The notes below the pieces were generated by a model, which worked only from the letters and a program-made list of their open reading frames with translations, made no database searches and had not been told where the DNA came from. The position numbers and the translations under genes were made by a program. From a candidate division FCPU426 bacterium (lineage in GTDB: Bacteria; Oederibacteriota; Muellerivitia; Muellerivitales; Muellerivitaceae), in the NCBI GenBank assembly GCA_963719085.1, contig CAVRAL010000001.1, forward strand, positions 116,373 to 180,372: a stretch of 64,000 nt of DNA, given 5' to 3'. How positions within the stretch are numbered: the first letter of the stretch is position 1; the number at the start of each line of letters is the position of its first letter. Below are positions 1,266 to 62,802 of this stretch, in pieces.

Positions 1266-1558
1266 AAAAAATACAAGACGTCATTGTCCGGCCACTGATC
1301 ACCGAGCGCAGCACCCGGTTGAAGGAACAAGGCAAGTATTCCTTTGAGGTTCACCCGAACGCCACCAAGCAAGAGATTCGTCAAGCGGTGGAGACGGTTT
1401 TCAAGAAGGAAAAAGTTGAAGTGGTGAAGGTCAACACGATTAATGTCCCGGGCAAGATCCGCCGGGTGGGTCGGAATGTTTCCAACGCCTATCGCTGGAA
1501 AAAGGCGATTGTGACCGTGAAGCCTGGTCAAAAAATTGAATTCTTTGAAGGGGCCTGA
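1262..1558 (+). CDS. rplW: 50S ribosomal protein L23
   Basis: [25 protein letters not shown]; ATGA overlap with rplD stop sets the start at 1262. Confidence 0.97.
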
Positions 1559-1560
1559 TT

Positions 1561-2394
1561 ATGCCAATTAAAAATTACAAACCCACGTCGCCGGGTCGCC
1601 GGGCCATGACCGCGATCACCGGGGAAAATTTGACCAAGAAGGCCCCGGAAAAGTCTTTGATGGAGCCCTTGAAGGGTTCGGGCGGACGCAATATGTACGG
1701 CCGCATCACCAGCCGTCACCGGGGCGCGGGGCATAAACGCCAATACCGCATCATCGATTTCACCCGTAACAAAAGGGCGATGCAGGGCACGGTCGTTTCC
1801 TTGGAATATGACCCCAACCGCTCTTGCCGGATCGCCCTTGTCCAATATTTGGACGGCGAAAAGAAATACATTTTGGCGCCTGAAGGGCTGCAAGTGGGCA
1901 ATCAGGTTATTTCGGGCGAAGGGGCCGACGTGAAACCGGGCCACGCGATGAAATTAAAAGACATTCCCTTTGGTTCCATGATTCATAACATTGAGCTTCG
2001 GCCGGGCAAGGGCGGTCAAATGGTTCGCTCCGCCGGCTCGGTGGCCCAGCTCATGGCGCGCGAAGGGGAGTACGCGACGATTAAGCTTCCTTCCGGCGAG
2101 ATGCGCAAGGTTCACATTGAGTGCACCGCTTCCATCGGACAGGTCGGCAATTTGGATCACTTCAACGTGAGCATCGGTAAAGCCGGGCGCATGCGTTGGA
2201 TGGGAGAACGTCCCCAGTCCCGCGGCGTGGTGACGCGGCCGGGCGACGGACATCCGATGGGTGGTGGTGAAGGCAAGAGCTCGGGCGGACGTCATCCGAC
2301 GACGCCTTGGGGTAAGCCGACTAAGGGTTACAAGACCCGCCAGAACAAGCTGACGGATAAATACATCGTTAAACGCCGCAAAACCGGTAAATAG
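1561..2394 (+). CDS. rplB: 50S ribosomal protein L2
   Basis: [38 protein letters not shown]. Confidence 0.99.
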
Positions 2395-2408
2395 GAAAGG
2401 GATTTTAA

Positions 2409-2696
2409 ATGGGACGATCGCTAAAAAAAGGCCCCTATGTGGTTGAGAAGCTTTTGAAGCTGGTTCAAAAAATGAACCGGGCCAATGACAAAAAAGTCGT
2501 CAAGACCTATGCCAGACGCTCCTCGGTTCATCCCGAAATGGTGGGACATACTTTCGCCATCCATAACGGAAAAAAGTTTATCCCGGTTTTCATCACTGAA
2601 AACATGGTGGGCCACAAGCTGGGGGAATTTTCCCCGACGCGTACTTTTAAAGCGCATGGCGCGGTGAAAACCGAAAAATCCATGCAGCTCAAGTAA
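2409..2696 (+). CDS. rpsS: 30S ribosomal protein S19
   Basis: [25 protein letters not shown]. Confidence 0.99.
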
Positions 2697-2710
2697 GGAA
2701 GGTTGATTTT

Positions 2711-3061
2711 ATGGAAGCACAGGCCATTTCTCGATTCACGCGATTGACTCCCCGGAAAGCCCGCCAAGTGGTGGAACTGATCCGCAAGAAGCCGGTCGCC
2801 GAAGCGCTTAACATTTTGGCTTTTACCAAGAAGAAGGCCGCGGGCGAAATCGCAAAGATTATCAAGGCGGCCGTGTCGAACGCCGGACAGAATTCCCGCG
2901 TGGACGTGGACAAGCTTCGGATCAAAAACGTCCAAGTGGATGGCGGTCCCATGCTTCAAAACGCGAAACGCTTTATCCCGCGGGCCATGGGACGGGCCAG
3001 CGCTATTCACCGCCGGACCAGCCACATTAAAGTGGTTGTGACCGACGAATCTAAAGCATAA
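2711..3061 (+). CDS. rplV: 50S ribosomal protein L22
   Basis: TPRKARQVVELIR, PRAMGRAS..RTSHI. Confidence 0.98.
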   Translation: MEAQAISRFTRLTPRKARQVVELIRKKPVAEALNILAFTKKKAAGEIAKIIKAAVSNAGQNSRVDVDKLRIKNVQVDGGPMLQNAKRFIPRAMGRASAIHRRTSHIKVVVTDESKA

Positions 3062-3079
3062 ATTTTTCGGAGGCTTCTT

Positions 3080-3814
3080 TTGGGACAGAAAATTAATCCA
3101 ATTGGATTCAGATTAGGCATCATTCGGGACTGGGACTCGCTGTGGTTCTCGGCGAAGAAAAAGATCTACACTGAAACCTTGTTGGAAGACATTCAGCTTC
3201 GCAAGTTCGTGAAAATGCACTTGAAACACGCCGGCGTGGCCCGCGTGGTTTTGAAGCGCAAAGGCGAGACGGTGGAAGTGGATATTTTCGCCTCCCGGCC
3301 CGGCATCGTGATCGGCAAAAAAGGCTCCGAAGTCGACAAACTCAAGGCGGAGCTCCAAAAGTTCACTAAGAAAGAAATTCGCATCAACATCAACGAGGAG
3401 AAGCACCCTGAAACAAACGCCCAATTGATCGCCGAAAGCGTGGCGAGCCAGTTGGAAAAACGCATCGCTTTCCGCCGGGCCATGAAAAAGTCGATTCAAA
3501 GCGCTTTGGATGGCGGAGCGAAGGGAATCAAGATCATGTGTTCCGGCCGTTTGGCCGGTTCTGAAATCGCACGGTCCGAATGGTATCGCGAAGGCCGGGT
3601 GCCGCTCCATACCTTGCGGGCCGATATTGATTACGGCTTGGCCGTTTCCAACACGACCTATGGAACCATCGGCGTGAAGTGCTGGGTCTTTAAGCGCGAG
3701 ATTTTTGAAGCCAAAGAAAAGCCTGAAGAAGTGAACGCCGCTAAAACAAAGCCTTCGAATCGCGAGCGTAACGAGCGTAAATCGACCGAATCCGGCGCGC
3801 CGGCCTCGGCTTAG
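3080..3814 (+). CDS. rpsC: 30S ribosomal protein S3
   Basis: TTG start; MGQKINPIGFRLG, GRVPLHTLRADIDY. Confidence 0.99.
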   Translation: MGQKINPIGFRLGIIRDWDSLWFSAKKKIYTETLLEDIQLRKFVKMHLKHAGVARVVLKRKGETVEVDIFASRPGIVIGKKGSEVDKLKAELQKFTKKEIRININEEKHPETNAQLIAESVASQLEKRIAFRRAMKKSIQSALDGGAKGIKIMCSGRLAGSEIARSEWYREGRVPLHTLRADIDYGLAVSNTTYGTIGVKCWVFKREIFEAKEKPEEVNAAKTKPSNRERNERKSTESGAPASA

Positions 3815-3839
3815 CCTCGTAACCATAAAGGACTAGACC

Positions 3840-4265
3840 ATGTTAATGCCGAAACGAGTGAAATACCGAAAGATGCAAAAAGGCCGGATGCGCGGAAAAT
3901 CCAAAAATGGGTTTACCTTCGCTTTCGGGGAATTCGCCTTGAAGTCGGAAGACGCGGCTTATGTCACCGACCGTCAAATTGAGGCGGCCCGTGTGGCGAT
4001 TAACCGTCATATGAAGCGCGTGGGAAAACTTTGGGTGCGTATTTTCCCGGATCGTCCGGTCACCAAAAAGCCGGCGGAAGTTCGTATGGGTGGCGGTAAG
4101 GGCGCCCTGGATCATTGGGCCGCCGTTGTGAAGCCGGGTCGTATCTTGTTTGAAGTTTCCGGAGCGCCGGAAAATGTTGTGCGGGAAGCGTTTCAATTAG
4201 CCTCGCATAAGCTCCCGGTGAAGACCAAGTGTTTATCCCGAGCCGATGTGGGAGGTATGTCATGA
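3840..4265 (+). CDS. rplP: 50S ribosomal protein L16
   Basis: [23 protein letters not shown]. Confidence 0.99.
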
Positions 4266-4462
4266 AATCCAAGGAAGTTCGCGAGTTTAATATTGATCAA
4301 TTGAAACAACAGCTTATTTCGAAAGAAGAAGAGTTGTTCAATTTGAAGATCCAGCTTTCGACGAAACAACTGGAAAACCCGATGAAGATCCGGGAAGCCC
4401 GCCGCCATGTGGCGCGGTTGAAGACGATTCTTCGTGAAAAAGAAAAAGGTACAAAAGCATAG
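4262..4462 (+). CDS. rpmC: 50S ribosomal protein L29
   Basis: [23 protein letters not shown]; ATGA overlap with rplP. Confidence 0.96.
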
Positions 4463-4592
4463 CATGGCGCTAAAAAATTTTTTTCATCGCCATGCTGACA
4501 GGCAGGGGTTTAAACGAGCCGCCGAAAACTTGGTTTCTTTTGATTGCGGCTCGTTCGTAAATAGGAAAAAGTCGTCAAAAACCGACTTTTTC
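4460..4592. repeat. three consecutive inverted repeats in the rpmC-rpsQ spacer
   Basis: AGCATGGCG/CGCCATGCT (4461-4496), AACGAGCCGC/GCGGCTCGTT (4513-4555), GAAAAAGTCG/CGACTTTTTC (4565-4592). Confidence 0.8.
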
Positions 4593-4614
4593 ACCATCTG
4601 TTAAGGAGCGTTTG

Positions 4615-4908
4615 ATGTCAGCTGAAACAAATACGAATCGAAAAGAACCCCGGACCAAAACCGCGGTTGTGGTTAGCCGCAAAATGGATAAGACGGCGGT
4701 GGTGTCCATCGAACGTTTGGTCAAGCACCCGCTTTACCAAAAACTGGTGCGCAAGCGCAGCAAGTTTAAGATCCACGACCCTAAGAATGAGACCCAGGCG
4801 GGGGATGTGGTTTTGATCGCGGAGACCCGGCCCATCAGCGCGGATAAGCATTGGAAGCTGGTGAAGATCTTGCGTAAAGCCGTTCAGGTTGAGGAGGCTA
4901 AATTATGA
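4615..4908 (+). CDS. rpsQ: 30S ribosomal protein S17
   Basis: [28 protein letters not shown]; SD AAGGAG upstream. Confidence 0.98.
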
Positions 4909-5273
4909 TCATGCCTCAAACCATGCTCAATGTGGCCGATAACAGCGGGGCCACGAGAATTATGTGTATCCATGTGCTGGGCGGAACCCGGCGCCGTTAC
5001 GCCGCTATCGGTGACGTGATTGTGGCGGCCGTGAAGGAAGCGATCCCGGGAGCGGGTGTGAAAAAGAGTGAAGTCGTGAAGGCGGTGGTGGTTCGTCAAC
5101 GCCGCGTTTTGGTCCGCCCGGACGGGTCCAGCATCCGTTTTGACGAAAACGCCGCGGTCATCATTAATGAGCAGATGGCTCCTCGCGGAACGCGCATCTT
5201 TGGACCGGTGACCCGTGAATTGCGTGATAAGAATTTTATGAAAATCATTTCGCTGGCGCCGGAGGTTTTGTAG
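4905..5273 (+). CDS. rplN: 50S ribosomal protein L14
   Basis: [32 protein letters not shown]. Confidence 0.99.
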
Positions 5274-5275
5274 AC

Positions 5276-5596
5276 ATGAAAGTTCATCGCGAAGACACAG
5301 TGATGGTTTTGACGGGCAAAGACAAAGGCAAAAAGGGGCGCGTGATCCGCGTTTTCCCGCAGCAAGAAAAAGTCTTGGTCGAGAAGGTCAATATGGCCAA
5401 ACGCCATACCCGGCCGACCCAGCAGTTGCCGCAGGGGGGCATTATCGAGAAGGAAATGCCGCTTCATGTTTCCAATGTTCAGTTGATTTGCCCGAAGTGT
5501 GGAAAGTCGACCCGGGTGGCCCATAAGATTCTGGCCAGCGGCCAAAAAAATCGCGCTTGTAAAAAGTGCGGCGAAATTATGGATAAGGAAAAATAA
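5276..5596 (+). CDS. rplX: 50S ribosomal protein L24
   Basis: KOW motif [10 protein letters not shown]; CPKC and CKKC near the C-terminus. Confidence 0.98.
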
Positions 5597-5597
5597 G

Positions 5598-6152
5598 ATG
5601 CCGACGAAGACGATTCTTAAAGAAAAGTATGTCAGCGAAATTGTTCCGGCTTTGATGAAAAAGTTCGAAATCAAGAACGCCATGCGCGTTCCTAAAGTCG
5701 AAAAAGTGGTTTTGAACGTTTGCGTGGGAAAAGCCGCCTCGGAAAACAACATTAAGCTTTTGGATATGGCCGCCGCGGAACTGGGCATGATCACGGGTCA
5801 AAAGCCGGCGATCACCCGCTCGAAGAAGGCGATCTCTAACTTCAAGCTTCGGGCCGACCAGCCTTTGGGCTGTAAGGTGACGCTTCGCGGGGACCGGATG
5901 TACCAGTTTCTGGAGCGCTTTTTTATGGTGGCGCTTCCCCGGATTCGGGACTTTCGTGGCGTCCCGACCCGTTCCTTTGATGGTCGCGGCAATTACACTC
6001 TGGGATTAAAAGAACAGATCATTTTCCCGGAAATTAATTTTGAGGACGTCCAATCCATTCATGGCATGGATATCACTTTCACGACGACGGCGAAGACGGA
6101 CGAGGAAGCCAAGGAGCTTTTGAAGTTGTTGGGAATGCCTTTTAGAAACTAG
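5598..6152 (+). CDS. rplE: 50S ribosomal protein L5
   Basis: [27 protein letters not shown]; start moved to ATG 5598. Confidence 0.99.
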
Positions 6153-6160
6153 GAGATTTC

Positions 6161-6346
6161 ATGGCGAAAAAAAGTTTGGTGAATAAGCAAAAAAAGACCC
6201 CGAAGTTTAAGGTTCGGGCCTATAGCCGCTGCCGGCTGTGCGGCCGTCCGAGGGCTTTTTTGAGGCGGTTTGGTATGTGCCGTATTTGTTTTAGAAACCT
6301 GGCGGGCGAGGGGAAAATCCCCGGCGTCGTCAAGGCCAGCTGGTAA
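6161..6346 (+). CDS. rpsN: 30S ribosomal protein S14, short Zn-binding (type Z) form
   Basis: 61 aa; CRLCGR..CRICFR; GVVKASW. Confidence 0.98.
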
Positions 6347-6359
6347 AGGGAGAATTTTT

Positions 6360-6761
6360 ATGTCTATGACCGATCCCATCGCGGATATGTTGACGCGGAT
6401 TCGCAACGCGAATCACGTCTATAAGGAAAAAGTGGACGTTCCTTTTTCCAAGTTGAAATTGGAAATCGCCCGGATCCTTTCGGAAGAAGGATTCATTAAG
6501 AACTACAAAGTGGTTGAGGATAAAACCAAGCCTTCCGCCATCCGCATTTCGATGAAATACGGGGAAAAGCGGGAGCGGGTGATCACCCATATCGGCCGCG
6601 TGAGTCGTTCGGGCCGCCGGGTTTATCGGGGCAAAGCCAGCATTCCCCGGGTCATTGGGGGATTGGGCGTGGCGATCTTGTCGACGTCCAAGGGCGTCTT
6701 GACCGATCAGCAGGCCCGTCAGCAAGGTGTGGGCGGCGAGGTTCTTTGTTTAATTCATTGA
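6360..6761 (+). CDS. rpsH: 30S ribosomal protein S8
   Basis: [27 protein letters not shown]. Confidence 0.99.
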
Positions 6762-6793
6762 TTTTGTTTATTAATTAAGTTGAGGGAGAAGTT

Positions 6794-7351
6794 ATGGCGC
6801 GCATTGCCAAAAAACCAATCGAACTACCGACCGGCGTTAAGGTGAAAACCGAAGGCCAAAAGGTCATGGTGGAAGGCCCTAAAGGCACTCTGAACCATGA
6901 AATGGTGGCTGGGATCAAGCTGGAAACCCAAGGGCAGCAGCTTTTGGTGTCGATCACCGGAAATGAGAAAAGCCTGAATTCGTTTCACGGATTGACCCGG
7001 GCTTTGATTAAAAATATGGTCCTCGGCGTGACTTCGGGTTTCGAGCGCAAACTGGAAATCCAAGGCGTCGGCTACCGCGCCACCATGGATAAAGGAAAGC
7101 TCAGCATGTCCCTGGGCTTCAGCCATCCGGTCGTGATGGAATTACCCAAGGGTGTCTCGGTGGATATCGAGAAACAAACCCTCTTAACCGTGAAGGGCGT
7201 CGATAAATATTTGGTCGGTGAGACCGCGGCCAAAATTCGCCGCGTGAAACCCCCTGAAGTTTACAAAGGAACGGGCATTCGCTATTTGGGCGAACAGGTC
7301 CGCAAGAAAGTCGGTAAAACCGGCGCCACCGGCAAAGCCGGCGGGAAATAA
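6794..7351 (+). CDS. rplF: 50S ribosomal protein L6
   Basis: GVGYRA, LGFSHPV, PPEVYKGTGIRY. Confidence 0.99.
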   Translation: MARIAKKPIELPTGVKVKTEGQKVMVEGPKGTLNHEMVAGIKLETQGQQLLVSITGNEKSLNSFHGLTRALIKNMVLGVTSGFERKLEIQGVGYRATMDKGKLSMSLGFSHPVVMELPKGVSVDIEKQTLLTVKGVDKYLVGETAAKIRRVKPPEVYKGTGIRYLGEQVRKKVGKTGATGKAGGK

Positions 7352-7360
7352 GGAGCCAAC

Positions 7361-7735
7361 ATGTCCATTCTCATCTCGCAGGTCCGTCGTAAAAAAAGAA
7401 TCAAGCGCCACGCCCGCATCCGAAAAACGGTCAAGGGATCGGCGATCCGTCCGCGTTTGGTGGTCAACCGTGGAGCCAAGAATATCGCGGTTCAATTGAT
7501 TGATGACGTGAAGGGCGCGACCTTGGCGGCGGCCTCCAGCTTTGACCAGACGCTACGCGGCAAGGTCAAGTACGGCGGTAATTTGGACGCGGCGAAGGCC
7601 GTTGGCGAGCAGATCGCCAAATTGGCCAAGGAAAAGGGAATCGAAAAAGCGGTATTTGATCGGGGCGGTTATTCGTTCCATGGAAGAATCAAGGCTTTGG
7701 CGGATGCGGCTCGCCAAGGCGGGCTTCAGTTTTAA
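7361..7735 (+). CDS. rplR: 50S ribosomal protein L18
   Basis: [26 protein letters not shown]. Confidence 0.99.
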
Positions 7736-7777
7736 AAGCCGGATAAGCACCAGCACCAAAAGGGAAAAAGGATTTTT

Positions 7778-8290
7778 ATGGCCATGATTGACTCGAGCAA
7801 GTTTGATCTGAAAGAAAAAGTGGTAAACATCAACCGCGTCGCCAAAGTGGTGAAGGGCGGACGCCGGTTCAGCTTTTCCGTTTTGGTGGTGGTCGGGGAC
7901 GGACATGGGCATGTGGGCGCCGGCACGGGTAAAGCCAGCGAGGTTCCGGACGCGATCCGCAAGGCCGTTGAGGACGCTAAGAAAAACCTGATCGAGGTTC
8001 CTTTGAAGTCGACCACGCTGTTTCATGAAATCGTGGGCGTGTTTAAAGCTTCCCGCGTGATGCTTCGCCCAGCCGCGCCGGGAACGGGAATCATCGCGGG
8101 CGGAGGCGTGCGGGCGGTTTGTGAGCTGGCCGGCATCCATGACGTTTTGACCAAATCCATCCGTTCGGACAATGTGTTCAACGTGGTGCAGGCGACCTTG
8201 ACGGGCCTCAGGGCTATTCGTTCGCCGGAAACCATCTCCAAGCTTCGGGGCAAATTAGTGGAAAGCTACGTGGGAGCGTCCAAATCATGA
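7778..8290 (+). CDS. rpsE: 30S ribosomal protein S5
   Basis: [25 protein letters not shown]. Confidence 0.99.
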
Positions 8291-8463
8291 GCGAAATTAA
8301 AATTCAACTGATCAAGAGCTTGAACGGGCGTTTGCCCCGTCATCGCCGGATCGCGGAAGCCTTGGGGCTCAATAAGATCCGCCAGACCGTGGTGAAGCCG
8401 GATACCCCGGTGATCCGCGGCATGGTTGAGAAAATCGGCTATTTAGTCGAAGTTAAAAAATAA
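8287..8463 (+). CDS. rpmD: 50S ribosomal protein L30 (not in ORF track)
   Basis: Manual translation [58 protein letters not shown]; canonical position between rpsE and rplO. Confidence 0.96.
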
Positions 8464-8483
8464 AGACATCGAGGACTATGGTT

Positions 8484-8921
8484 ATGAAGATGAATGAATT
8501 AAAACCAGCCCATGGCGCCGTTCGCCGCCGCAAAATCGTCGGAAAAGGCCCGGGCTCGGGACATGGAAAAACCTCTACCCGCGGTCATAAGGGTCAAAAT
8601 TCCCGCACCGGTGGCGGCGTTCGTTTGGGTTTTGAAGGCGGTCAAACACCGCTTTACCGCCGGATTCCGATTCGGGGTTTTAAAAGCCGCAACCTGGAAG
8701 TTCCCTCGGTCGTCAATTTGGATAAATTGTCCTTGTTTGACAACGGAACCGTGGTCACCCCGGTGGAGCTCAAAGCCAAGGGGTTGGTCCGCAATATTCA
8801 TCAAGTCAAAATCTTGGGAAAAGGCGAAATCAAGACCAAATTGACCGTCAAAGCCCACGCGTTCAGCGCCTCGGCCATTGAGAAAATCAAGGCCGCCGGT
8901 GGAATGACGGAGGTTTTGTAA
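8484..8921 (+). CDS. rplO: 50S ribosomal protein L15
   Basis: [30 protein letters not shown]. Confidence 0.99.
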
Positions 8922-10250
8922 GTGCTTTCGGCCTTCACCAACATCTTTCGAATCCCGGAACTTAAAAGCCGGGTTCTTTTCACCTTTATGATGCTTTTGG
9001 TTTACCGCGTGGGTTGTCATATCCCCACTCCGGGAGTCAACGCGGCGGCCCTGCAGAATTTCTTTTCTAATCAAAACGGCGGCATTTTGGGCTTCCTGAA
9101 TCTTTTCTCTGGCGGCGCTTTGCGGCAGTTCTCGATTTTCGCGCTGGGGGTCATGCCTTACATCAGCATGTCCATCATTTTGCAGCTGTTGACGGCGGTC
9201 ATCCCGACGCTGGAGAAATTATCCAAAGAAGGCGACGCGGGACGCCGCAAGATTACCCAATACACTCGGTATGGAACGGTTCTTCTTTGTATTGTTCAAG
9301 GAACCGGTTCGACCTATCTTTTGAAATCATTTAATGAAAACATTGTTTACCATTGGGGGTTGTCTTTCCAAATCATCACCGTCCTCACCTTGACCGCGGG
9401 AACCATCTTTATCATGTGGCTCGGGGAACAGATCACCGAGTACGGAATCGGAAACGGGATTTCTATCATCATCTTCGCCGGTATTGTGGCCAGCTTGCCG
9501 GGACAAATATTCAACACCTTTCGGCTTCTGCGTTTGGGCGAGGTGAATCTTTTTGGCGTGGTTTTCTTCGCGCTTTTCACGGTGGCCATGATCGCCTTCA
9601 TTGTCATTCTGCAGCAGGGCGCCCGGAAGATCCCGGTCCAATACGCGACCCGAGTGGTCGGGAAGCAAGTGTTTAAAGGCCAGTCCACCCAACTGCCCTT
9701 GAAGGTCGATTATTCCGGCGTGATCGCGGTGATTTTCTCCTCCTCGATCTTGGTTTTTCCGACTACGCTGGCCCGCTATCTGCAATCGGTGGCCCCCGAA
9801 GACGGATGGTTGTATGGGGTGATGGATTTCGTGACCCGGAACTTTTCACCCGGAGCCTTTATCTATTATGTTTTGTACTCCGCCTTGATCGTTTTCTTTT
9901 GCTACTTTTACACAGCGATCGCCTTTAACCCGACCGACTTGTCGGAAAACATGAAAAAGTACGGTGGGTTCATTCCCGGCATTCGGCCCGGGCAGCCGAC
10001 GGCCGAGTTTATTGATCGCACCTTGACTCGGATCACCATTTGGGGTGCTTTGGCGGTTTGTTGCGTGGCCGTTTTCCCGGATGTGCTGACCCGTCAATTG
10101 AAGATTCCTATTTATTTCGGCGGAACCTCTTTGTTGATCGTGGTGGGCGTGGGATTGGACACGATGAAGCAAATTGAGTCCCATCTATTGATGCGCCACT
10201 ATGACGGATTTATGAAAAAGGGCCGGTTGAAAGGGCGGAGCGCGTTTTAA
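8922..10250 (+). CDS. secY: preprotein translocase subunit SecY
   Basis: SIFALGVMPYI, WLGEQITEYGIGNG, FIPGIRPG, GGTSLLIVVGV. Confidence 0.99.
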   Translation: MLSAFTNIFRIPELKSRVLFTFMMLLVYRVGCHIPTPGVNAAALQNFFSNQNGGILGFLNLFSGGALRQFSIFALGVMPYISMSIILQLLTAVIPTLEKLSKEGDAGRRKITQYTRYGTVLLCIVQGTGSTYLLKSFNENIVYHWGLSFQIITVLTLTAGTIFIMWLGEQITEYGIGNGISIIIFAGIVASLPGQIFNTFRLLRLGEVNLFGVVFFALFTVAMIAFIVILQQGARKIPVQYATRVVGKQVFKGQSTQLPLKVDYSGVIAVIFSSSILVFPTTLARYLQSVAPEDGWLYGVMDFVTRNFSPGAFIYYVLYSALIVFFCYFYTAIAFNPTDLSENMKKYGGFIPGIRPGQPTAEFIDRTLTRITIWGALAVCCVAVFPDVLTRQLKIPIYFGGTSLLIVVGVGLDTMKQIESHLLMRHYDGFMKKGRLKGRSAF

Positions 10251-10906
10251 TGAGAACCATACTTTTAGGAGAACCGGGAGCGGGCAAGGGAACTTATTCG
10301 CTTGAATTGGTCAAACGCTATGGAATCCCCCAGATATCCACGGGCGATATGCTTCGCGCCGCTGTTCGGGCTGGAACCGCTTTGGGGTTAAAAGCCCAAG
10401 AATTCATGAAAAAGGGCGAATTGGTGCCGGATTCGGTCGTGATCGGCCTTATTCGGGAGCGCATTGCCCAGCCGGATGCCGCCAAAGGCTTTATTTTGGA
10501 CGGTTTTCCCCGCACGGTGCCCCAGGCCGTGAGCTTGGATGAAACCTTATCCGAATTGGGCATAAGCCTGTCTTCGGTGTTTAAAATTGAAGTCAGCCGG
10601 GAGACCTTGATCAAACGCCTGACCGGCCGGCGGGTTTGTAAGACTTGCGGAACTACCTATAACATTGATACCATGCGACCCCTTAAAGAGGGGATTTGTG
10701 ACAAGGATGGCGGCGAGCTGATCCAGCGTCCGGATGACATGCCGGCGACCATTGAAAACCGCTTGTCGGTTTACCATAAGGACACAGCGCCCCTCATCGA
10801 GTATTACGAGAAAAAGGGTTTGCTCCGCCGGGCGTCTTGTGAGGGTGAGTATGAGGATGTGATCGCTCGTATTTTCGCGGCTCTGGAAAAGGGTGCGGCC
10901 GTTTAG
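10250..10906 (+). CDS. adk: adenylate kinase with Zn-type lid
   Basis: GEPGAGKGT P-loop, LDGFPRT, CKTC..CDKD. Confidence 0.98.
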   Translation: MRTILLGEPGAGKGTYSLELVKRYGIPQISTGDMLRAAVRAGTALGLKAQEFMKKGELVPDSVVIGLIRERIAQPDAAKGFILDGFPRTVPQAVSLDETLSELGISLSSVFKIEVSRETLIKRLTGRRVCKTCGTTYNIDTMRPLKEGICDKDGGELIQRPDDMPATIENRLSVYHKDTAPLIEYYEKKGLLRRASCEGEYEDVIARIFAALEKGAAV

Positions 10907-11658
10907 TGATTACGATTAAGTCAAAAGACGAATTGCAGCTGATGCGAAAAAGCGGAAAAGTGGTCGGGGACGCGTTGGTTGAGTTGGGCCGGCGGATTAA
11001 GCCGGGCGTGACGACGGATGAGTTGGACCGGTTCGCTTTTGATTTTTTTAAGAAGAATGACTGTGTTCCGGCTTTTAAGGGATATCACGGCTACCCTTCG
11101 ACCATTTGTACTTCGGTCAATGACGAAGTGGTCCATGGAATTCCGGGCAAACGGGTGTTGAACGAAGGGGATGTGGTGGGGGTGGACATCGGGGCCTTCT
11201 ATAAAGGCTACTGTGGTGATTCCGCCAGAACTTTCGCGGTCGGGAAAATTAGCCCGGACGCTAAAAAGCTTCTGGAAGTTACCGCGAAAGCTTTAGATAA
11301 GGGTATCGAGCAGTGCCGGGTGGGAAACCGAATCTCGGATATCGGCCACGCGGTCCAGGAATATGTGGAGGCGTTCGGCTTTACGGTTGTCCGGGATTAT
11401 GTGGGACACGGGATCGGCCAGGCCATGCACGAGGAACCGCAGGTTCCGAATTACGGAAAGCCCCATCAGGGGCCGAAGATGGTGGAAGGGATGTGCCTGG
11501 CCTTGGAGCCGATGGTCAATATCGGTTCGGAAGAGGTTAGGGTTTTGGAAGACGGCTGGACGGTGGTGACGAAGGATGGGAAATGGTCCGCGCATTTTGA
11601 GGATACAGTGGCCATTTTGCCCGACGGCCCCGAAATATTGACGCGAGTTAACCCTTAA
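10906..11658 (+). CDS. map: methionine aminopeptidase type I
   Basis: [28 protein letters not shown]. Confidence 0.98.
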
Positions 11659-11675
11659 GGGTGGTGTGGAGGAGT

Positions 11676-11894
11676 ATGGCAAAGGAAGAAGCGATTTCGG
11701 TGGAAGGGGTGGTGATTGAAGCCCTCCCCAACGCAAGTTTTCGAGTGGAATTGGAAAACAAACACGTGGTTTTAGCCCACGTGTCGGGAAAAATGAGGAT
11801 GAATTTCATAAGAATTCTCCCCGGGGACCGGGTGACGGTCGAGTTATCGCCTTATGATTTAAGCCGGGGGCGTATTACGTACCGGTTCAAATAA
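11676..11894 (+). CDS. infA: translation initiation factor IF-1
   Basis: [33 protein letters not shown]. Confidence 0.99.
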
Positions 11895-11935
11895 GTTAAA
11901 ATTTTTTACGTTGGAAAGATAGGAAGGATAGAAAC

Positions 11936-57182: not shown

Positions 57183-58430
57183 ATGCAACCACGTTTGGTT
57201 TTATTCGCCAAAACCCTTTTAACTTTGGACCGCTCGAAACCCATCGAGGATGGTTTTGTGCTGGTTCAAGGCAGCCGGATCCTGCAAGTGGGACGCCGGA
57301 AGGATTTTTATTCCCAGCCGCCGGTTCGCGCCCTGGATCTGGGCGACACGATTCTTTTGCCCGGCCTCATCAACGCCCATTGCCACTTGGACTTTACCGC
57401 CTTCAAGGGAAAGGTTCCTTTTAAGGGAAGCTTCCGCGAGTGGCTGAGGGAGATGGCGGGCAAGAGCCGGCTGGCCACAACGGCCGATTTTCACAAGTCG
57501 GTCAAATCCGGGATCCAGGAAAGCCTGGCCCATGGCACGACAACGCTTTGCGACATTTCCACCAGTGGGGAAAGTTTTAAATTGCTTCCCAAGTCGGGCC
57601 TGCGGGCCTTCGCTTTTTTGGAGCTTTTGGATGTGGCCCAGCCCAAGCCGGACGCGGTTTGGAAAAGCTTCCAAGAACGGATGAAGCGTTTGACTTCCGG
57701 GCTCCCGGATTCGGAAACATTCCGCTGGGGCATCGGCCCCCACACGCCTTTCACCGTTTCCAAGGAACTTCTTCTTTTGGCGGGCCGATACGTGGGCTCG
57801 CGGGCCCATTGTTTGACCACCCTGCATGTGGCGGAAAGCCGGGAAGAGTCCGTTTTTTTTAAGCGGGGAAAAGGCCCGATGGCGGATCGCATCAAGGTTT
57901 TAAACCCCGATTGGAACCTTCCCCACGGCACCACGCCGGTTCAATACTTAAACGAGTGCGGCTGGCTTCCTAAATTGGACCTGGCGGTCCATCTCAACGA
58001 AGTAGTGGAAAAGGACTTAAGGCTTCTGGCCAAGAACCGGGTAAGCGTTGTTCACTGCCCGGGGAGCCACGACTTTTTTAACCATTCCCGGTTTAAATTT
58101 GAAAAAATGCGCCGCTTGGGGATTCGAGTCTGCCTGGGGACGGATAGCTTGGCCAGCAACCGGTCTTTGTCCCTGTTCCGTGAAATGAGGCTTTTTCAAG
58201 GCGCGCACCCCAAGGTGGGTGCCGAGGAGATCCTTTCCATGGTGACGGTTAAACCGGCGCAGGCCTTAGGGGAGGGCCGTACCTTAGGGAGGATAAAACC
58301 GGGCTATTTCGCCGATCTCATCGGCATTCCGGCCCCGCGGCGGGGTCAAAAAGACCCCTATCAAGCCGTGATTCAAAACCAACGCCCCGTCACTTTTTCC
58401 ATGATTCATGGCCGCTTAAGGCTCCGCTAA
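57183..58430 (+). CDS. metal-dependent amidohydrolase, possibly aminodeoxyfutalosine deaminase
   Basis: LPGLINAHCHL, PHTPFTV, HVAES.EE, LGTDSLASN; near mqn genes (specificity inferred). Confidence 0.8.
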   Translation: MQPRLVLFAKTLLTLDRSKPIEDGFVLVQGSRILQVGRRKDFYSQPPVRALDLGDTILLPGLINAHCHLDFTAFKGKVPFKGSFREWLREMAGKSRLATTADFHKSVKSGIQESLAHGTTTLCDISTSGESFKLLPKSGLRAFAFLELLDVAQPKPDAVWKSFQERMKRLTSGLPDSETFRWGIGPHTPFTVSKELLLLAGRYVGSRAHCLTTLHVAESREESVFFKRGKGPMADRIKVLNPDWNLPHGTTPVQYLNECGWLPKLDLAVHLNEVVEKDLRLLAKNRVSVVHCPGSHDFFNHSRFKFEKMRRLGIRVCLGTDSLASNRSLSLFREMRLFQGAHPKVGAEEILSMVTVKPAQALGEGRTLGRIKPGYFADLIGIPAPRRGQKDPYQAVIQNQRPVTFSMIHGRLRLR

Positions 58431-58633
58431 AGGGCCCCTCTATTCCCTTATTTGGCCTATTTCTGGGATTTACCCAGTTAACTCCCTAAATCCATAAACC
58501 CCTTTAAATTAGGCCCTAAAAACTCACAGAAAGCTCCCTTTAAATAGCCTTAAATTTTTGGTCTAAAAGTCTTAAATAATCATTAAGTATGATGGAATGG
58601 AAGATAAAGAGTTACGTTTGTATACCCCATTGC

Positions 58634-58661
58634 TTGACATCAAAATACCTGTAATTATAAT
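58634..58661 (+). promoter_or_regulatory. consensus sigma70 promoter inside the element
   Basis: TTGACA-N16-TATAAT upstream of the 65-aa ORF. Confidence 0.75.
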
Positions 58662-58754
58662 GCCTGTTCTTTGACTCAGGCCAATTTTGGCATTTAGAAG
58701 TAACCTTTAATTTTTAATCTATAAAACAATCTGTTTAAGATTCTGGAGCTAAAC

Positions 58755-58952
58755 ATGAACGAAAAAGAACAGTTAGATCAAATCCAAAGTGAACTCAAAG
58801 CTCGTGGAGTTAAGGATGTGAAGTTTTTTGTTTCTACCACCGGAGAAGCTTCTACGAATAAAGTTGCCGCTGCTGCCGCAACTTTTCTTAGAGCAATCTT
58901 GGACGGAAAACGAACTCTCAAGAAAGAATTTGGGAGCAATAAATCCAAATAA
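58755..58952 (+). CDS. small hypothetical protein (65 aa)
   Basis: GGAG SD, upstream promoter, downstream terminator. Confidence 0.75.
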   Translation: MNEKEQLDQIQSELKARGVKDVKFFVSTTGEASTNKVAAAAATFLRAILDGKRTLKKEFGSNKSK

Positions 58953-58977
58953 GTTAGAACCCGTATCCTTGATATTG

Positions 58978-59010
58978 ATGGGCTCTTAAATGTAAGAGCC
59001 CATTTTTTTT
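58978..59010 (+). terminator. intrinsic terminator between orf65 and the IrrE-like gene
   Basis: ATGGGCTCTTA-AATG-TAAGAGCCCAT followed by T-run. Confidence 0.8.
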
Positions 59011-59038
59011 GTTTAAAATACCGTATTTGGGGCGTCCT

Positions 59039-59674
59039 ATGAGACAGATTACCTATCGACATTTAAAAATTTGTTTAGAAAAAGCAAAGGAGATGTTCGA
59101 TAAATATCAAACCTGGGGAGATGGCGATCCTGGGTTCGAGAGAAATGTCGATGTTTTGGGTAGTGTTTGCGCCCGGGATTTAGAGGAAAGCATTCGTGTC
59201 TATGACGTTGAAGCTGTGCCGGAAGAGTTAAAAGAACTATGCGGTGGCTTGTGCTTAGTGATCGAAGATGGAAGTTATGAAATTAATTTACATCCGGCGC
59301 TCAATCCCTGCTGGCAACGATTCATTTTATGTAAGGAACTCTTCCAAGTTGTTTTGGACGGCCAAGAGTATAGAAGCGTAAATTTGTATGCTCACCTAGA
59401 ACAGCTGATTCAAATAATGCCGGGGGACGGGGATGACGATAGTATTTATCTTCCGGGCGTTTCTGAGTTGATGGCTGAAATAGCTGCAATGGAATTTTTA
59501 TTTCCATATTCTGAACGGTTAAAAATCAAATCTCAAAAAAGTATAAATTTGTTAGACGTTGCAACCAAATATCGGATTCCTCAAAAGTTTGTTGCCATTT
59601 ATCTTTCGGACGCTTATATGGGTTTTCTAAATCCCGATTCAGATGATTTGAAAGTTGCTGAAAGCTCGGTATAG
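59039..59674 (+). CDS. ImmA/IrrE (peptidase M78)-like protein with degenerate Zn motif
   Basis: INL..LN.CWQRFILCKELFQ at the RFTxAHExxH position; E..AE.AA.E.LFP; C-terminal HTH-like DVATKYRIP. Confidence 0.7.
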   Translation: MRQITYRHLKICLEKAKEMFDKYQTWGDGDPGFERNVDVLGSVCARDLEESIRVYDVEAVPEELKELCGGLCLVIEDGSYEINLHPALNPCWQRFILCKELFQVVLDGQEYRSVNLYAHLEQLIQIMPGDGDDDSIYLPGVSELMAEIAAMEFLFPYSERLKIKSQKSINLLDVATKYRIPQKFVAIYLSDAYMGFLNPDSDDLKVAESSV

Positions 59675-59718
59675 ATTATCTGTAGACTTGTTGTCTTAGG
59701 GCTAAAGCCCCCCCGAAG

Positions 59719-59925
59719 TCATTTAAAAAACTCCCCAAAATCGACTTTCAAATAATCGGCTATTTTCTCCAAAACCGGGATAGTTGGTATCCTTTTGCCG
59801 TTAAGGTAATTGTGGATAGTGGCTTTTGATATTCCCGCCCCGAAAGCTACCTTCTCAGAGCTTTGGCCGCTGTTCACAATCATTCTTCTTAGGTTTTTAA
59901 CTGCTTTTTTCGCATAGTTTGACAT
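59719..59925 (-). CDS. Xre/Cro-C1 helix-turn-helix regulator
   Basis: EKVAFGAGISKATIHNYLNGKRIPTIPVLEKIADYLKV. Confidence 0.92.
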   Translation of the reverse strand: MSNYAKKAVKNLRRMIVNSGQSSEKVAFGAGISKATIHNYLNGKRIPTIPVLEKIADYLKVDFGEFFK

Positions 59926-59959
59926 GCCAAAAACTATAGATTTTTGTCTTGCCTTATAC

Positions 59960-59994
59960 GTTCACCCTTGTAAACTTTGTTTACGTTCGTAAAC
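59960..59994. promoter_or_regulatory. two tandem 16-bp palindromic operator candidates
   Basis: GTTCAC-CCTT-GTAAAC (59960-59975) and GTTTAC-GTTC-GTAAAC (59979-59994) in the divergent xre/lipoprotein spacer. Confidence 0.65.
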
Positions 59995-60012
59995 CACTTG
60001 AATAGGCTAAAC

Positions 60013-60564
60013 ATGGGCAAATATATAGTAGTCCTAATACTATCCCTTATTGGCTCACTACCTTTAGCTTGTAGCATAGACCATCCGGTACCATCTGCAC
60101 CTCAAACCGTAGCTACGAGTACATACACACCAACAACCACTCCAACCACGACTACGACACCCACACCTACCTCTATCTACACGATGATTCCGGTTACAAT
60201 CGTTGCCAATTCTCAATATCCAACTACAAGTGAACCCAGCTACAGCGCCATACTTTTATGGGGGTCTTGCCCCGGCGGAACAGGCTTATGTCTTAGTGGG
60301 TCTGTATCTTTGGGGCTGTCTTCGAATTACCAAGCAACTACGGTCGTTTCGATACCACAAGGACAATTTACCTACATTCAAGTTAATGAAGCCTATTCAC
60401 TCCCGGTAAATTATACTTTTGGAAACACATTGGAACTGATTGTAACCCAACCTAACGTTTCTCCTGTTACGAGTTACGGAAGTCCCGTTACTTCCGGTTC
60501 TGATGTTGCCGATGATGCTGACATTGATACGAATGTGGGCAGTTCCGCCTCATCAGTTAAATAA
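60013..60564 (+). CDS. putative lipoprotein with Thr/Pro linker
   Basis: MGKYIVVLILSLIGSLPLA-C lipobox-like; TPTTTPTTTTTPTPT. Confidence 0.75.
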   Translation: MGKYIVVLILSLIGSLPLACSIDHPVPSAPQTVATSTYTPTTTPTTTTTPTPTSIYTMIPVTIVANSQYPTTSEPSYSAILLWGSCPGGTGLCLSGSVSLGLSSNYQATTVVSIPQGQFTYIQVNEAYSLPVNYTFGNTLELIVTQPNVSPVTSYGSPVTSGSDVADDADIDTNVGSSASSVK

Positions 60565-60577
60565 AAGGAGTTTGAAA

Positions 60578-60832
60578 ATGGCAACCTTCTTTATTTGTTA
60601 TGACCTCGCGCAAAAAGATGAAGATTATTACGAAGACCTATTCAAAGATTTGAAAAGTCTAGGTGCCAAACGAGTTCAAGAATCGGTTTGGGCTCTTAAA
60701 TCTGACCAAAGAACCTCGGAAATTTTCGATGCTCTAAAAGGCAATTTCCCGGATGATAACGATAGGCTTTTAGTTGGAAACATAGACGGATGGAGTAGTC
60801 GCCATTCGATGTATAACATCAAAGACATTTGA
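60578..60832 (+). CDS. stand-alone Cas2/VapD-like ferredoxin-fold protein (84 aa)
   Basis: AAGGAG SD; ICYDL..L...G..RVQESVW..DRLLV pattern. Confidence 0.75.
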   Translation: MATFFICYDLAQKDEDYYEDLFKDLKSLGAKRVQESVWALKSDQRTSEIFDALKGNFPDDNDRLLVGNIDGWSSRHSMYNIKDI

Positions 60833-60997
60833 TTACTCATCCTCGGAGCTTTGATATTGAGGGATACCTGGAGGGGTAATAAGACTACTTTCGAATTTGA
60901 CCGTTTCGAGAGATTTGCGCATTACCTCCAGGGCTTTCCATTCTTCCTTTGACTCAGGTTCAAATTTTAAACCGCCGTTGTACCAGTACACTCTCAT
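60833..60997 (-). CDS. micro-ORF (54 aa), third gene of the transposase transcript
   Basis: Manual translation MRVYWYNGGLKFEPESKEEWKALEVMRKSLETVKFESSLITPPGIPQYQSSEDE; ATGA overlap with the upstream ORF. Confidence 0.55.
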   Translation of the reverse strand: MRVYWYNGGLKFEPESKEEWKALEVMRKSLETVKFESSLITPPGIPQYQSSEDE

Positions 60998-61104
60998 TTT
61001 TTTGTATCCTTCTTTTTCTTTTTGGGTTCCTTGTTTCCGAATTTCAAAATCGCATCCAAAACCTTGTTTAACTTTTCTAATTCCTCTTTAACTTTTTTGG
61101 TCAT
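60994..61104 (-). CDS. basic micro-ORF (36 aa) coupled to the transposase
   Basis: Manual translation MTKKVKEELEKLNKVLDAILKFGNKEPKKKKKDTKK; ATGA overlap with the transposase stop. Confidence 0.6.
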   Translation of the reverse strand: MTKKVKEELEKLNKVLDAILKFGNKEPKKKKKDTKK

Positions 61105-62024
61105 TCTTGCGCCCCGATCAGACGCTTGTAGGTAAGCCGCTTGCCAATGGAAGAATCAAGAAGACTGGCTAAACGTTCCATGCTAGTCCTGGTAACGTTG
61201 CCGTCGCTAAGACGAAATGCAAATTCATTTACGTATCGAGAAAGGTGTTTCTTGGAGGCGTGGTGATAGACTCCATTCAAACCACGCTTCATAACTGCCC
61301 AAACGCTTTCAATTCCGTTGGTAGTTACGTCGCCACGAACATACTCTTCTTTTTCGTGATTGATTTTCTCAATCGTGTATTGGCTCTTGAGATATTTGTA
61401 TCCTGGGAATTGATCGGTATTCAAAATTGAACCCGCTTCAATATTTTTGGTAATGGTTTCAAATCGTTCTTTGGCGTTGATTTCATCAACCACTACGCCT
61501 TTAGTACGGCCTTTGCGTTCCCGCATTCCAACAACAATTGTTTTTCCGATAGAACCACCACCATGAATCCTTTTACTTTGATGCTTGTTTGCTTCAAGGC
61601 CACCAACATAAGTTTCATCAATCTCAACAGTGCCACTTAAAAGTAGGGAAGGATCACCAGCACATGCTTCTCTAATACGACTCAAAAGAAACCAAGCCGT
61701 TGTTTGAGTGACTCCGATTTCTTTAGACAGTTGCATTGATGAAACGCCTTTCCTTGAAGTCACTAGGAGGTACATTGCAAACAACCATTTATTTAATGGA
61801 ACGTGAGACCGCTCAAAGAGGGTGCCAGTTCTCACAGTGAAATCAACCAAACAGGCATTACAGTGGTAGTAGCCACGCTTACGGATGCCAATGCGTTTAG
61901 TCTCCGAACAGCACGGGCAAATAGGTCCATTTGGCCATCTGCGGGCCTCAATATGCTTCCTCGCTGCCTCTTCGTCTGGAAACATCTCCATAAGCTTGTA
62001 AGCGCTAATCGCTGTGTTTTTCAT
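61101..62024 (-). CDS. IS1595-family DDE transposase
   Basis: Zn ribbon (CPCC..CNAC), HTH, VEIDETYVGG, TD, TNGIESVW, YVNEF.FR. Confidence 0.96.
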   Translation of the reverse strand: MKNTAISAYKLMEMFPDEEAARKHIEARRWPNGPICPCCSETKRIGIRKRGYYHCNACLVDFTVRTGTLFERSHVPLNKWLFAMYLLVTSRKGVSSMQLSKEIGVTQTTAWFLLSRIREACAGDPSLLLSGTVEIDETYVGGLEANKHQSKRIHGGGSIGKTIVVGMRERKGRTKGVVVDEINAKERFETITKNIEAGSILNTDQFPGYKYLKSQYTIEKINHEKEEYVRGDVTTNGIESVWAVMKRGLNGVYHHASKKHLSRYVNEFAFRLSDGNVTRTSMERLASLLDSSIGKRLTYKRLIGAQE

Positions 62025-62052
62025 ATCTTCTCCTAGCTAAGTCATTAAAATC

Positions 62053-62158
62053 ATTGTGGCGGTCCGGAGCTTTATTAACGGTTCTGGTGACGTTAATAAG
62101 TGCCAATCCGATGACGGACTAAAGACCCCGAGGAAAGGCCCTCCGCAACCGCCACAAT
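62053..62158 (-). ncRNA. candidate structured RNA (four-way junction) in the transposase leader
   Basis: 11-bp outer stem, 5-bp inner stem and three arms; G-U pairs work only on the minus strand. Confidence 0.55.
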
Positions 62159-62281
62159 CATTCCCCGACTTCGATAAATGCCTTCCAAATGCCTCTAAAA
62201 ACCCTAAAAATTTGGCCTTAATCCGGCTCCAAAACCCGCTCAAATTAGGGAGTTAACTGGGTTATTCCCCTATTTCTGTTC

Positions 62282-62309
62282 TTGACAGGTCCATTAAAAA
62301 CCATATAAT
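62282..62309 (+). promoter_or_regulatory. sigma70 promoter of rplM-rpsI
   Basis: TTGACA-N16-TATAAT. Confidence 0.85.
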
Positions 62310-62352
62310 TCAGGCCCTTGTATCTCTATTAGACAGAAACGAAGGTAATGCT

Positions 62353-62802
62353 ATGACGCTTCAAAAGACTTATCTCCCCACCGTCAAGGACATCAACCGT
62401 AAATGGTGGCTTGTCGACGCGAAGGATCAGGTGCTGGGCCGTTTAATTTCCCGTGTGGCCGCCGTGTTGCGTGGAAAGCACAAAACGACCTTTACGCCGC
62501 ATTTGGAAAACGGTGATCATGTGGTGATCATCAACGCCGACAAGATCGTGCTCACGGGACGCAAGTGGGAAACCAAATCCCATCACCGCACCTCGGGCCG
62601 TCCGGGCGGATTGTCCACCGAAACCTACAAGGTGCTTCGCACCTCGAAGCCTGAGCGCATTTTGGAATACGCCATCAAGGGCATGCTGCCCAAGACCTCC
62701 CAGGGGGCGAAGATGTTCACCCGGGTTAAGATTTACGCGGGCGAAACCCATCCCCACGAAAGCCAAGTTCCGCAAGTTCTCGATTTCGCATCTAAAAAGT
62801 AA
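62353..62802 (+). CDS. rplM: 50S ribosomal protein L13
   Basis: WWLVDA..LGRL, LRGKHK..FTPH..GD, KGMLPK. Confidence 0.99.
   Translation: MTLQKTYLPTVKDINRKWWLVDAKDQVLGRLISRVAAVLRGKHKTTFTPHLENGDHVVIINADKIVLTGRKWETKSHHRTSGRPGGLSTETYKVLRTSKPERILEYAIKGMLPKTSQGAKMFTRVKIYAGETHPHESQVPQVLDFASKK

Follow-up and report, generated by a model that had tools for sequence, protein, structure and literature searches.

An IS1595-family transporter insertion sequence with probably mosaic, uncharacterised cargo in a candidate division FCPU426 bacterium

The window analysed here is a stretch of 64,000 nucleotides from a candidate division FCPU426 bacterium (contig CAVRAL010000001.1, positions 116,373 to 180,372), and its positions 58465-62269 are an IS1595-family transporter insertion sequence (tIS), the whole 3805 bp (~3.8 kb) of which, passengers included, was moved by one DDE transposase as a single transposition unit. 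The element is one more example of a textbook-type tIS, a kind already known, and its cargo is uncharacterised, probably mosaic and not a recognised defence system. In the reading that we find fairly probable, the cargo was assembled from at least three self-contained blocks that derive from prophages and integrative elements, namely from their accessory and regulatory regions: (i), the gene of a 65-aa protein (orf65), an intrinsic terminator and the gene of an M78-like protein (block 1, 58634-59674); (ii), an XRE repressor gene and a divergent lipoprotein-like gene (block 2, 59719-60564); (iii), a standalone Cas2-like gene (block 3, 60578-61104, which takes in two doubtful ORFs). We read the cargo in this way because the blocks recur separately, PADLOC recognises no system, the M78-like gene is conserved alongside orf65, and its product has lost its metal-binding histidines. 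Of most value are the orf65-terminator-M78(KExxH) cassette and the Cas2-like gene, a passenger that recurs on other mobile elements.

The transposition unit and its insertion site

A perfect 8-bp direct repeat, CTATTTCT, read directly from the DNA, brackets all 3805 bp (left copy 58457..58464, identical to the right copy at 62270..62277). Inside it lie the left inverted repeat, IRL (GGGATTTACCCAGTTAACTCCCTAA, 58465..58489, plus strand, 25 nt), and the right one, IRR (GGGAATAACCCAGTTAACTCCCTAA, 62245..62269, minus strand), which match at 23/25 positions (92% complementarity). The transposase gene is complete (61101..62024, minus strand, 307 aa) and its product is an IS1595-family DDE enzyme, scoring 185.8 bits against NCBIfam NF033547 (cut-off 75) and matching PF12762 at 4.1e-40 over positions 2-151 of 153, with an N-terminal zinc ribbon (PF12760, 1.5e-12). 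The element is present once in the 3.04-Mb, 99%-complete genome, and its G+C is foreign, 0.33-0.46 inside against 0.54-0.58 in the flanks. Both features that delimit the IS1595 family, an ISXO2/IS1595-type transposase with a zinc ribbon and inverted ends with an 8-bp duplication, are present; duplication of 8 bp of target is the rule for IS1595 elements. An initial annotation of the window had listed near-perfect terminal repeats, a perfect duplication and a full transposase, and all three were confirmed. The transposase recognises the two GGGAnTTA...TTAACTCC ends, and it moved the 3.8 kb between them with its passengers, duplicating 8 bp at the target.

The element went into the spacer that separates an amidohydrolase gene from the rplM-rpsI promoter. 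The initial annotation had suggested a search for the empty site in relatives, and this site is found in G001, a genome of the same genus, where both flanks lie on one contig with the matched pieces 7 bases apart; in the alignment the amidohydrolase stop codon runs directly into the rplM promoter and the duplication-related word is present once. Because the G001 site is empty, the whole 3805 bp represent a single insertion made after the split from G001. The duplication and the empty site are what make the element a tIS, with passengers inside the ends that moved with the transposase as a unit, and together with the ends and the transposase they uphold the initial view of an intact element. 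That it was "recently inserted", as the same annotation had it, holds in the sense that the insertion followed the split from G001, recency being a relative term since the flanks of the window genome and of G001 are 71-83% identical. The matched flank pieces are also close together, 147-629 bases apart and each time on a single contig, in another 15 genomes of the family, which lack a 3.8-kb insert there; in G011 the flanks fall on separate contigs. Two soil metagenome runs from the same study yielded contigs that span both junctions at 100% identity, and the empty-site joint was not seen in these runs, which are not independent evidence because they possibly represent the source sample. A third sequencing run contained only short transposase pieces, and no RNA run was among those listed with matching sequence.

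Alternatively, a plain insertion sequence (IS) of ~1.2 kb might have landed beside a pre-existing low-G+C islet, the outer left end being a chance match. The transposase does sit at one extreme of the segment, and no second copy proves that the whole unit moves. However, the duplication flanks the whole 3805 bp, the empty site of the same genus lacks the entire segment, the repeat analysis reported no second end-like sequence inside the element and four sister elements hold cargo inside the same kind of ends; we find this alternative hardly credible.

These four elements, delimited around nearest relatives of the transposase (the initial annotation had proposed to collect elements with the same ends), share the end type GGGAnTTAnnnnnTTAACTCC and the 8-bp duplication (7/8 in one), and the cargo is different in each. 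The G012 element (2024 bp, duplication ATAGTTTC / ATAGTTTT, 7/8) carries the gene of a 212-aa membrane protein, the G023 element (2779 bp, TAATTTTA) those of a D12 adenine methyltransferase (PF02086, 1.2e-37) and a 263-aa protein, and the element of a Bryobacteraceae metagenome-assembled genome (1683 bp, CAAATTTG) one small open reading frame (ORF). The largest, a tIS of 5379 bp in G019 (L114 1467-6845 on G019:C30, duplication AAAATTTT), has near-perfect ends of ~36 nt and encodes two D12 adenine methyltransferases, a DUF7226/PD-(D/E)XK-like protein, two membrane proteins and a phrog_1090 Cas2-like protein, the gene of which adjoins the right end; the methyltransferases and the DUF7226/PD-(D/E)XK-like protein likely form a restriction-modification system. 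The five delimited elements include two with restriction-modification-type genes and two with a standalone Cas2-like nuclease gene. Since related tIS carry restriction-modification genes, an addiction or defence role of the cargo studied here is plausible by analogy.

The end motif GGGAnTTAnnnnnTTAACTCC, allowing one mismatch at most, occurs in 26/99 genomes of the phylum and 15/30 of the family, the control pattern giving 0-2 hits per genome; because of this distribution we assign the element to a tIS group that is at home in this bacterial family. In 77 genome-contig loci with transposase relatives, neither homologous cargo nor identical ends were found. The same motif also occurs as head-to-head pairs ~100-280 bp apart (G012, G064, G013, G069, G005, G073, G015 and G072, with five pairs 88 bp apart in G012), which look like derivatives of this IS group of the miniature inverted-repeat transposable element (MITE) type.

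Three further observations concern the element's surroundings and its transposase gene. A promoter with a 12/12 consensus match (TTGACA-16-TATAAT, 62282-62309) precedes rplM-rpsI, and the right end of the element lies 12 bases upstream of its -35 box; as a result, the sequence that used to lie upstream of about -47 at the promoter of this essential ribosomal-protein operon has been replaced by the element. In G015, which belongs to another genus of the family, the flanks of the same amidohydrolase-rplM spacer are separated by a 3.2-kb gap occupied by a different, IS1-family element of 2.5 kb (L134, G015:C5:6500-11000, ~875-3385) with 21-nt inverted ends (95%), an IS1-family transposase (PF03400, 2e-08) and additional ORFs, and the spacer may be a recurrent landing place. 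Finally, the transposase leader is unusually long (220 bp) and contains a predicted branched stem structure (62040..62165, minus strand) that is closed by 15-nt arms (62049-62063 / 62148-62162, 93% complementary) and ends ~12 nt before the ribosome-binding site. Its fold z of -1.97 is modest, Rfam gave no match at E<=1 over 58300-62450, this structure included, and any function of it we only infer.

The orf65-terminator-M78-like cassette

Block 1 opens with a predicted sigma-70-type promoter (TTGACA-16-TATAAT, 58634..58661, plus strand) that matches the consensus at 12/12 positions. It precedes orf65 (58755..58952, plus strand), whose product belongs to an unnamed family and shows, in the protein alignment of its relatives, the motif L..RGxxDVKFFF. 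A predicted intrinsic terminator (58977..59014, plus strand; 12-bp stem and 4-nt loop at 58977-59004, then a T-run) lies in the spacer before the gene of the M78/ImmA-IrrE-like protein (59039..59674, plus strand, 211 aa; PF06114, E 0.0036), of which the start, ATG 59039, was picked from the N-termini of homologues. Over the whole region, promoter-like sequences (5 against 8.1 expected from shuffled DNA) and terminator-like ones (2 against 4.1) are not above expectation, so that what counts is solely how good the two named sites are and where they lie.

What marks these genes as a pair is their conservation in gene order. Relatives of the M78-like protein are encoded at 17 metagenome loci, 13 of which have upstream DNA, and an orf65 relative lies directly upstream in 11 of these 13; no other conserved neighbour of the M78-like gene was found in the metagenome loci. 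The pair is also present in 4/6 viral contigs with upstream DNA, one of them being the same contig as a metagenome locus. The genes are thus adjacent and kept together, as in toxin-antitoxin-like pairs. In addition, a GC-rich hairpin followed by a U-run separates the pair in 9/9 folded intergenic regions (the one in the window and those of 8 of the 11 paired loci), the hairpins being unrelated in sequence. The pair sits at the extreme ends of viral contigs of ~41-42 kb or near integrase, terminase, tail, SRAP and AAA-ATPase genes; a gene of this SOS-response-associated peptidase (SRAP, PF02586) lies beside or near it in two unrelated loci (L093 3390-4451, L126 5577-6242). The orf65-terminator-KExxH M78-like cassette is a conserved, unnamed arrangement that recurs at prophage ends and in integrative elements.

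The orf65 family comprises 194 clusters at E<=1e-3, all labelled "hypothetical" and none with a Pfam family, its named members coming mostly from Xanthomonadales and Pseudomonas; no PADLOC model matches the family, orf65 itself gives a weak Csx1 match only (E 0.019), and the ESM Atlas, which does not include orf65 itself, gives no look-alike of an orf65 relative above 0.81. In the M78-like family, 14/17 members match PF06114 at E<=0.01 (best 6.7e-08), and the feature-based look-alikes of one relative in the ESM Atlas are IrrE-like clusters. A search for solved-structure relatives of its profile at E<=1 returned none, the plasmid and phage collections contain no match, and in the phylum the family is found in 1/99 genomes, namely G000, the source genome itself. 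In place of the HExxH motif of M78 peptidases the family has KELFH (KExxH) and the window copy KELFQ, which lacks both metal-binding histidines; K99 and E100 are invariant in the family alignment. Because the zinc-binding histidines are lost, the M78-like protein would act by binding rather than by cleaving.

The arrangement suggests how the cassette might work. The strong promoter would drive orf65 and the terminator would let only read-through transcripts reach the M78-like gene, which would set a high ratio of orf65 to M78-like protein, as in toxin-antitoxin-like pairs. Many toxin-antitoxin pairs need such an imbalance, and in type III ToxIN loci it is set by a terminator. It is conceivable, if unlikely, that tIS with ends of the type GGGAnTTA...TTAACTCC specialise in carrying addiction and defence genes and that orf65-terminator-M78(KExxH) represents a new Rosmer-like toxin-antitoxin or abortive-infection family, in which the zinc-less M78 protein would be a non-catalytic sensor or antitoxin and the dose would be set by the conserved internal terminator.

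The left arm of the terminator, TGGGCTCTTAAAT (13 nt, 58979-58991), is repeated exactly at 60689-60701, inside the Cas2-like coding region, and its right arm is therefore complementary to the Cas2-like mRNA at 12/13 positions; by our own estimate, ~0.1 such 13-mers are expected by chance in 3.8 kb.

The repressor, lipoprotein-like and Cas2-like genes

Block 2 consists of an XRE-family helix-turn-helix (HTH) repressor gene (59719..59925, minus strand, 68 aa; PF01381, 1.4e-11) and a divergent gene for a secreted or lipoprotein-like protein (60013..60564, plus strand, 183 aa). Their shared control region contains, on direct reading, putative operators of the form GTAAAC-N3-GTTTAC-N4-GTAAAC and a TACGTTC direct repeat (59955..59996). 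The closest relative of the repressor is a protein of G013 with 85% identity, the gene of which is again divergent from a lipoprotein gene (193 aa, Thr/Ser-rich); the GTAAAC/GTTTAC repeats are kept in the G013 intergenic region, which has a 10-bp insertion. Together with the 12/12 promoter and the 12-bp-stem terminator of block 1, these conserved repeats bear out the earlier claim that the cargo brings its own promoter, terminator and operators. Judging from the sequence, the repressor (XRE68) would bind the GTAAAC/GTTTAC operators and repress both itself and the divergent lipoprotein-Cas2-like operon. The lipoprotein-like product has a signal peptide ending in ...PLAC, a Thr/Pro-rich linker and a C-terminal domain of no known family (no family was found for the protein in Pfam, PHROG, NCBIfam or PADLOC), and it resembles the G013 lipoprotein only in the signal and linker parts.

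In G013 the repressor block recurs alone, near primase, methylase, Mrr-like and integrase genes. It lies there in an integrative island (L012, G013:C3:319000-331000, ~2299-8869) whose genes encode a methyltransferase, a 705-aa primase-helicase, an Mrr-like nuclease and a truncated tyrosine recombinase; an island of this type is likely the kind of source from which block 2 came.

The Cas2-like gene (60578..60832, plus strand, 84 aa) begins 13 nt after the lipoprotein-like gene and has AAGGAG upstream. Its product scores above the cut-offs of PF09827 (29.3 bits, cut-off 23.8) and TIGR01573 (25.9 bits, cut-off 24.5) and matches phrog_1090, a family with members of ~82-90 aa, better still (1.5e-13); its closest solved relatives are Cas2 proteins. 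At E<=1e-3 its relatives number 214 representative clusters; among relatives Y8 never varies and at least 90% retain D9. No Cas1 gene (PF01867) was found in the 99%-complete genome and no cas gene within the element. The Cas2-like block recurs alone in G009, with a copy 62% identical. Further afield, relatives include gp05 in the lysogeny region of Enterococcus phage phiFL1A (gene order int, ImmA, XRE, gp04, gp05) and a protein encoded near the int/metalloprotease/XRE module of Bacillus phage phi4B1, as well as proteins encoded on Vibrio plasmids, where a RelE/Phd pair and a Tn3 transposase are neighbours, and on a 4.1-kb Klebsiella plasmid. A literature search on standalone or prophage Cas2 with ImmA returned nothing specific. 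As the catalytic Asp is kept, the protein may be a small nuclease that serves the mobile element in addiction, exclusion or defence, and not in CRISPR adaptation; its recurrence in phage lysogeny regions, on plasmids and in two IS1595 tIS points to a role for Cas2-fold nucleases on mobile elements outside CRISPR.

Another phrog_1090 Cas2-like gene lies in a low-G+C island of G064 (L115, G064:C12:126000-139000, ~5500-11900), behind the genes of a membrane protein and an 802-aa protein and adjoining a PIN/AbrB-type toxin-antitoxin pair, labels that come from reading the sequences and not from a family search.

Two further ORFs complete the cargo and both are doubtful. Convergent with the Cas2-like gene and open in the window, orf54 (60833..60997, minus strand) has its only homologous copy in G009, where the DNA block is 68% conserved; we regard it as a doubtful gene because its frame is not open there. 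The Lys-rich orf36 (60994..61104, minus strand) overlaps the transposase stop codon, has no relative in the collections searched and is absent from G009. No family was found for either in Pfam, PADLOC, PHROG or NCBIfam. The seven passenger ORFs first annotated are accordingly reduced to five that are supported (orf65, M78-like, XRE, lipoprotein-like, Cas2-like). In phiFL1A, gp05 is convergent with the 53-aa gp04 and overlaps it by 4 nt (L116 4001-4437), a layout like that of the Cas2-like gene and orf54. The idea of orf54 as an antitoxin-like partner of the Cas2-like protein was dropped, given the broken G009 frame and the lack of similarity to gp04.

A mosaic cargo and its relation to known systems

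Do these genes form one system? The three blocks were not found together elsewhere, the search covering the species-representative genomes (99 in the phylum), the other collections and the matches listed. The cargo proteins that occur in a collection of 15 billion proteins are all singletons at 90% identity. PADLOC recognises no system, returning generic HTH and Cas2 hits besides the Csx1 match of orf65, and has no family for the M78-like protein, the lipoprotein-like protein, orf54, orf36 or the transposase. The initial annotation had not recognised the combination as a described system, and this judgement stands; its multi-gene module survives in that the genes travel in one element, and it divides into blocks that occur separately elsewhere. 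Each of these blocks, with signals of its own, would work independently and not as part of one switch.

One rival reading is an integrated switch in the style of ImmA/ImmR or CapP/CapH, which the initial annotation had invoked: the M78-like protein would sense damage or infection and inactivate the XRE repressor, thereby derepressing a lipoprotein-Cas2-like effector operon. The operators do face that operon. However, the KELFQ copy lacks both metal-binding histidines, KExxH being the motif throughout the family; the gene conserved next to the M78-like one is orf65 (11/13), and a scan of 57 ORFs neighbouring M78-like relatives found no HTH family; the 85%-identical repressor of G013 has no M78 neighbour; models of CapP and RmrA do not match; and the M78-like and XRE genes face each other and are not transcribed together. 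An ImmA/IrrE-type damage-inducible switch is on these grounds distinctly improbable.

Alternatively, the cargo could be inert, a decaying scrap of a prophage or integrative control region trapped between IS ends and of no benefit to element or host. The window copy of the M78-like protein has indeed lost the second His that most of the family keeps, orf54 and orf36 are doubtful, the element is single-copy and its cargo proteins are the singletons noted above. But the five supported ORFs are all intact, the promoter retains its 12/12 consensus, and neither terminator nor operators have been lost; purifying selection is evident in comparisons with relatives (Cas2-like against the G009 copy, dN/dS 0.20; XRE against G013, pN 0.084 and pS 0.87), values that reflect the long-term history of the blocks and not this copy; and sister tIS carry functional-looking cargo such as the D12 methyltransferases. 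We therefore think inert hitch-hiking rather improbable.

The mosaic of self-contained blocks is thus the reading that we retain, and a number of points weigh against it or against the labels on which it draws. First, the M78-like and XRE genes are adjacent here, convergent and 45 bp apart, and in phiFL1A and phi4B1 the genes of an ImmA-type protease, an XRE regulator and a Cas2-like (phrog_1090) protein cluster in or close to a single lysogeny region; by analogy, a functional link among ImmA-, XRE- and Cas2-like genes is possible. Second, the separateness of the blocks extends as far as the genomes, collections and listed matches named above. Third, block 1 is not uniform: orf65 is absent at the M78-like loci L106 and L108 and at the two most distant, partial viral matches, contact between orf65 and the M78-like protein is suggested by gene order, the window copy falls below the curated cut-off of PF06114 (17.5 against 22 bits), and the hhalign alignment of KELFH to the FHELGH of a phage metalloprotease is weak (E 0.065). 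Fourth, the lipoprotein-like protein has no true relative in the phylum, where the hits are weak and of low complexity (<=24 bits) and cover signal and linker only, and the orf54 frame is broken in G009, where ACG replaces the ATG start and a TGA occurs in frame.

Set beside known systems, the element is most readily compared with other IS1595 tIS, among which subgroups, told apart by their end sequences and catalytic tetrad, bear names such as ISNwi1, ISPna2 and ISNha5 (our literature search on these names found nothing specific). A 2009 paper by Siguier, Gagnevin and Chandler is said to deal with the transporter IS of this family. Like these, the element has a single DDE transposase with a zinc ribbon, short inverted ends, an 8-bp duplication and internal passengers within a few kb; unlike them, it and its cargo were not found elsewhere in the collections searched, its closest transposases are only 54-63% identical, and its end type GGGAnTTAnnnnnTTAACTCC is common to sister elements and MITE-like pairs of the same bacterial family. 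The tIS concept itself, a single-transposase IS with passengers inside its ends, is described in a TnCentral preprint and in the ISsaga paper, the latter citing Siguier et al., 2009. What the present group of tIS appears to add is a case in which an element with a single transposase reshuffles and carries small blocks for defence or addiction, in a phylum that has been little studied.

The Cas2-like protein shares with Cas2 and with standalone nucleases of the Cas2/VapD fold a Cas2 domain above the Pfam and TIGRFAM cut-offs and the N-terminal Y-D motif. It differs from CRISPR Cas2 in the absence of Cas1 from the genome and in a family that occupies phage lysogeny regions, plasmids and tIS, and from VapD in that no VapX-like antitoxin partner was identified, the convergent orf54 being doubtful.

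ImmA/ImmR (of ICEBs1), IrrE/DdrO and CapP/CapH are protease-repressor switches, and they resemble the present cargo in having M78-fold and XRE-type HTH proteins side by side, here on a mobile element. There are a number of key differences: (i), KELFQ stands in place of HExxH; (ii), the partner of the M78-like protein is a 65-aa non-HTH protein, with a terminator between the genes, and no conserved co-transcribed HTH partner like that of ImmA was found among the 57 neighbouring ORFs; (iii), the XRE gene is convergent and has a conserved partner of its own, the divergent lipoprotein gene; (iv), the CapP model matches 2/17 members of the M78-like family only, at E 0.01.

For block 1 the closest analogy is RosmerTA (RmrT/RmrA). 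In the available text of the NetFlax study, which also gives a summary of ImmA, the ImmA protease domain is a hub antitoxin domain in RosmerTA-like systems within type II toxin-antitoxin networks (PMC10440598), and the likeness to these systems, as far as that text describes them, lies in a two-gene cassette of a small variable protein and an M78-domain protein on prophages and mobile elements. Block 1 departs from RosmerTA in that its M78-like protein has no N-terminal HTH and no intact zinc site; RmrA models give 0 hits for the window copy and match 1/17 family members (E 0.026), and the conserved intrinsic terminator between the genes finds no mention in the available NetFlax text (PMC10440598). 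RosmerTA-like systems are in this sense an analogue of block 1 and not a class to which we assign it, and the orf65/M78-like cassette may extend the network of ImmA-domain toxin-antitoxin and defence systems.

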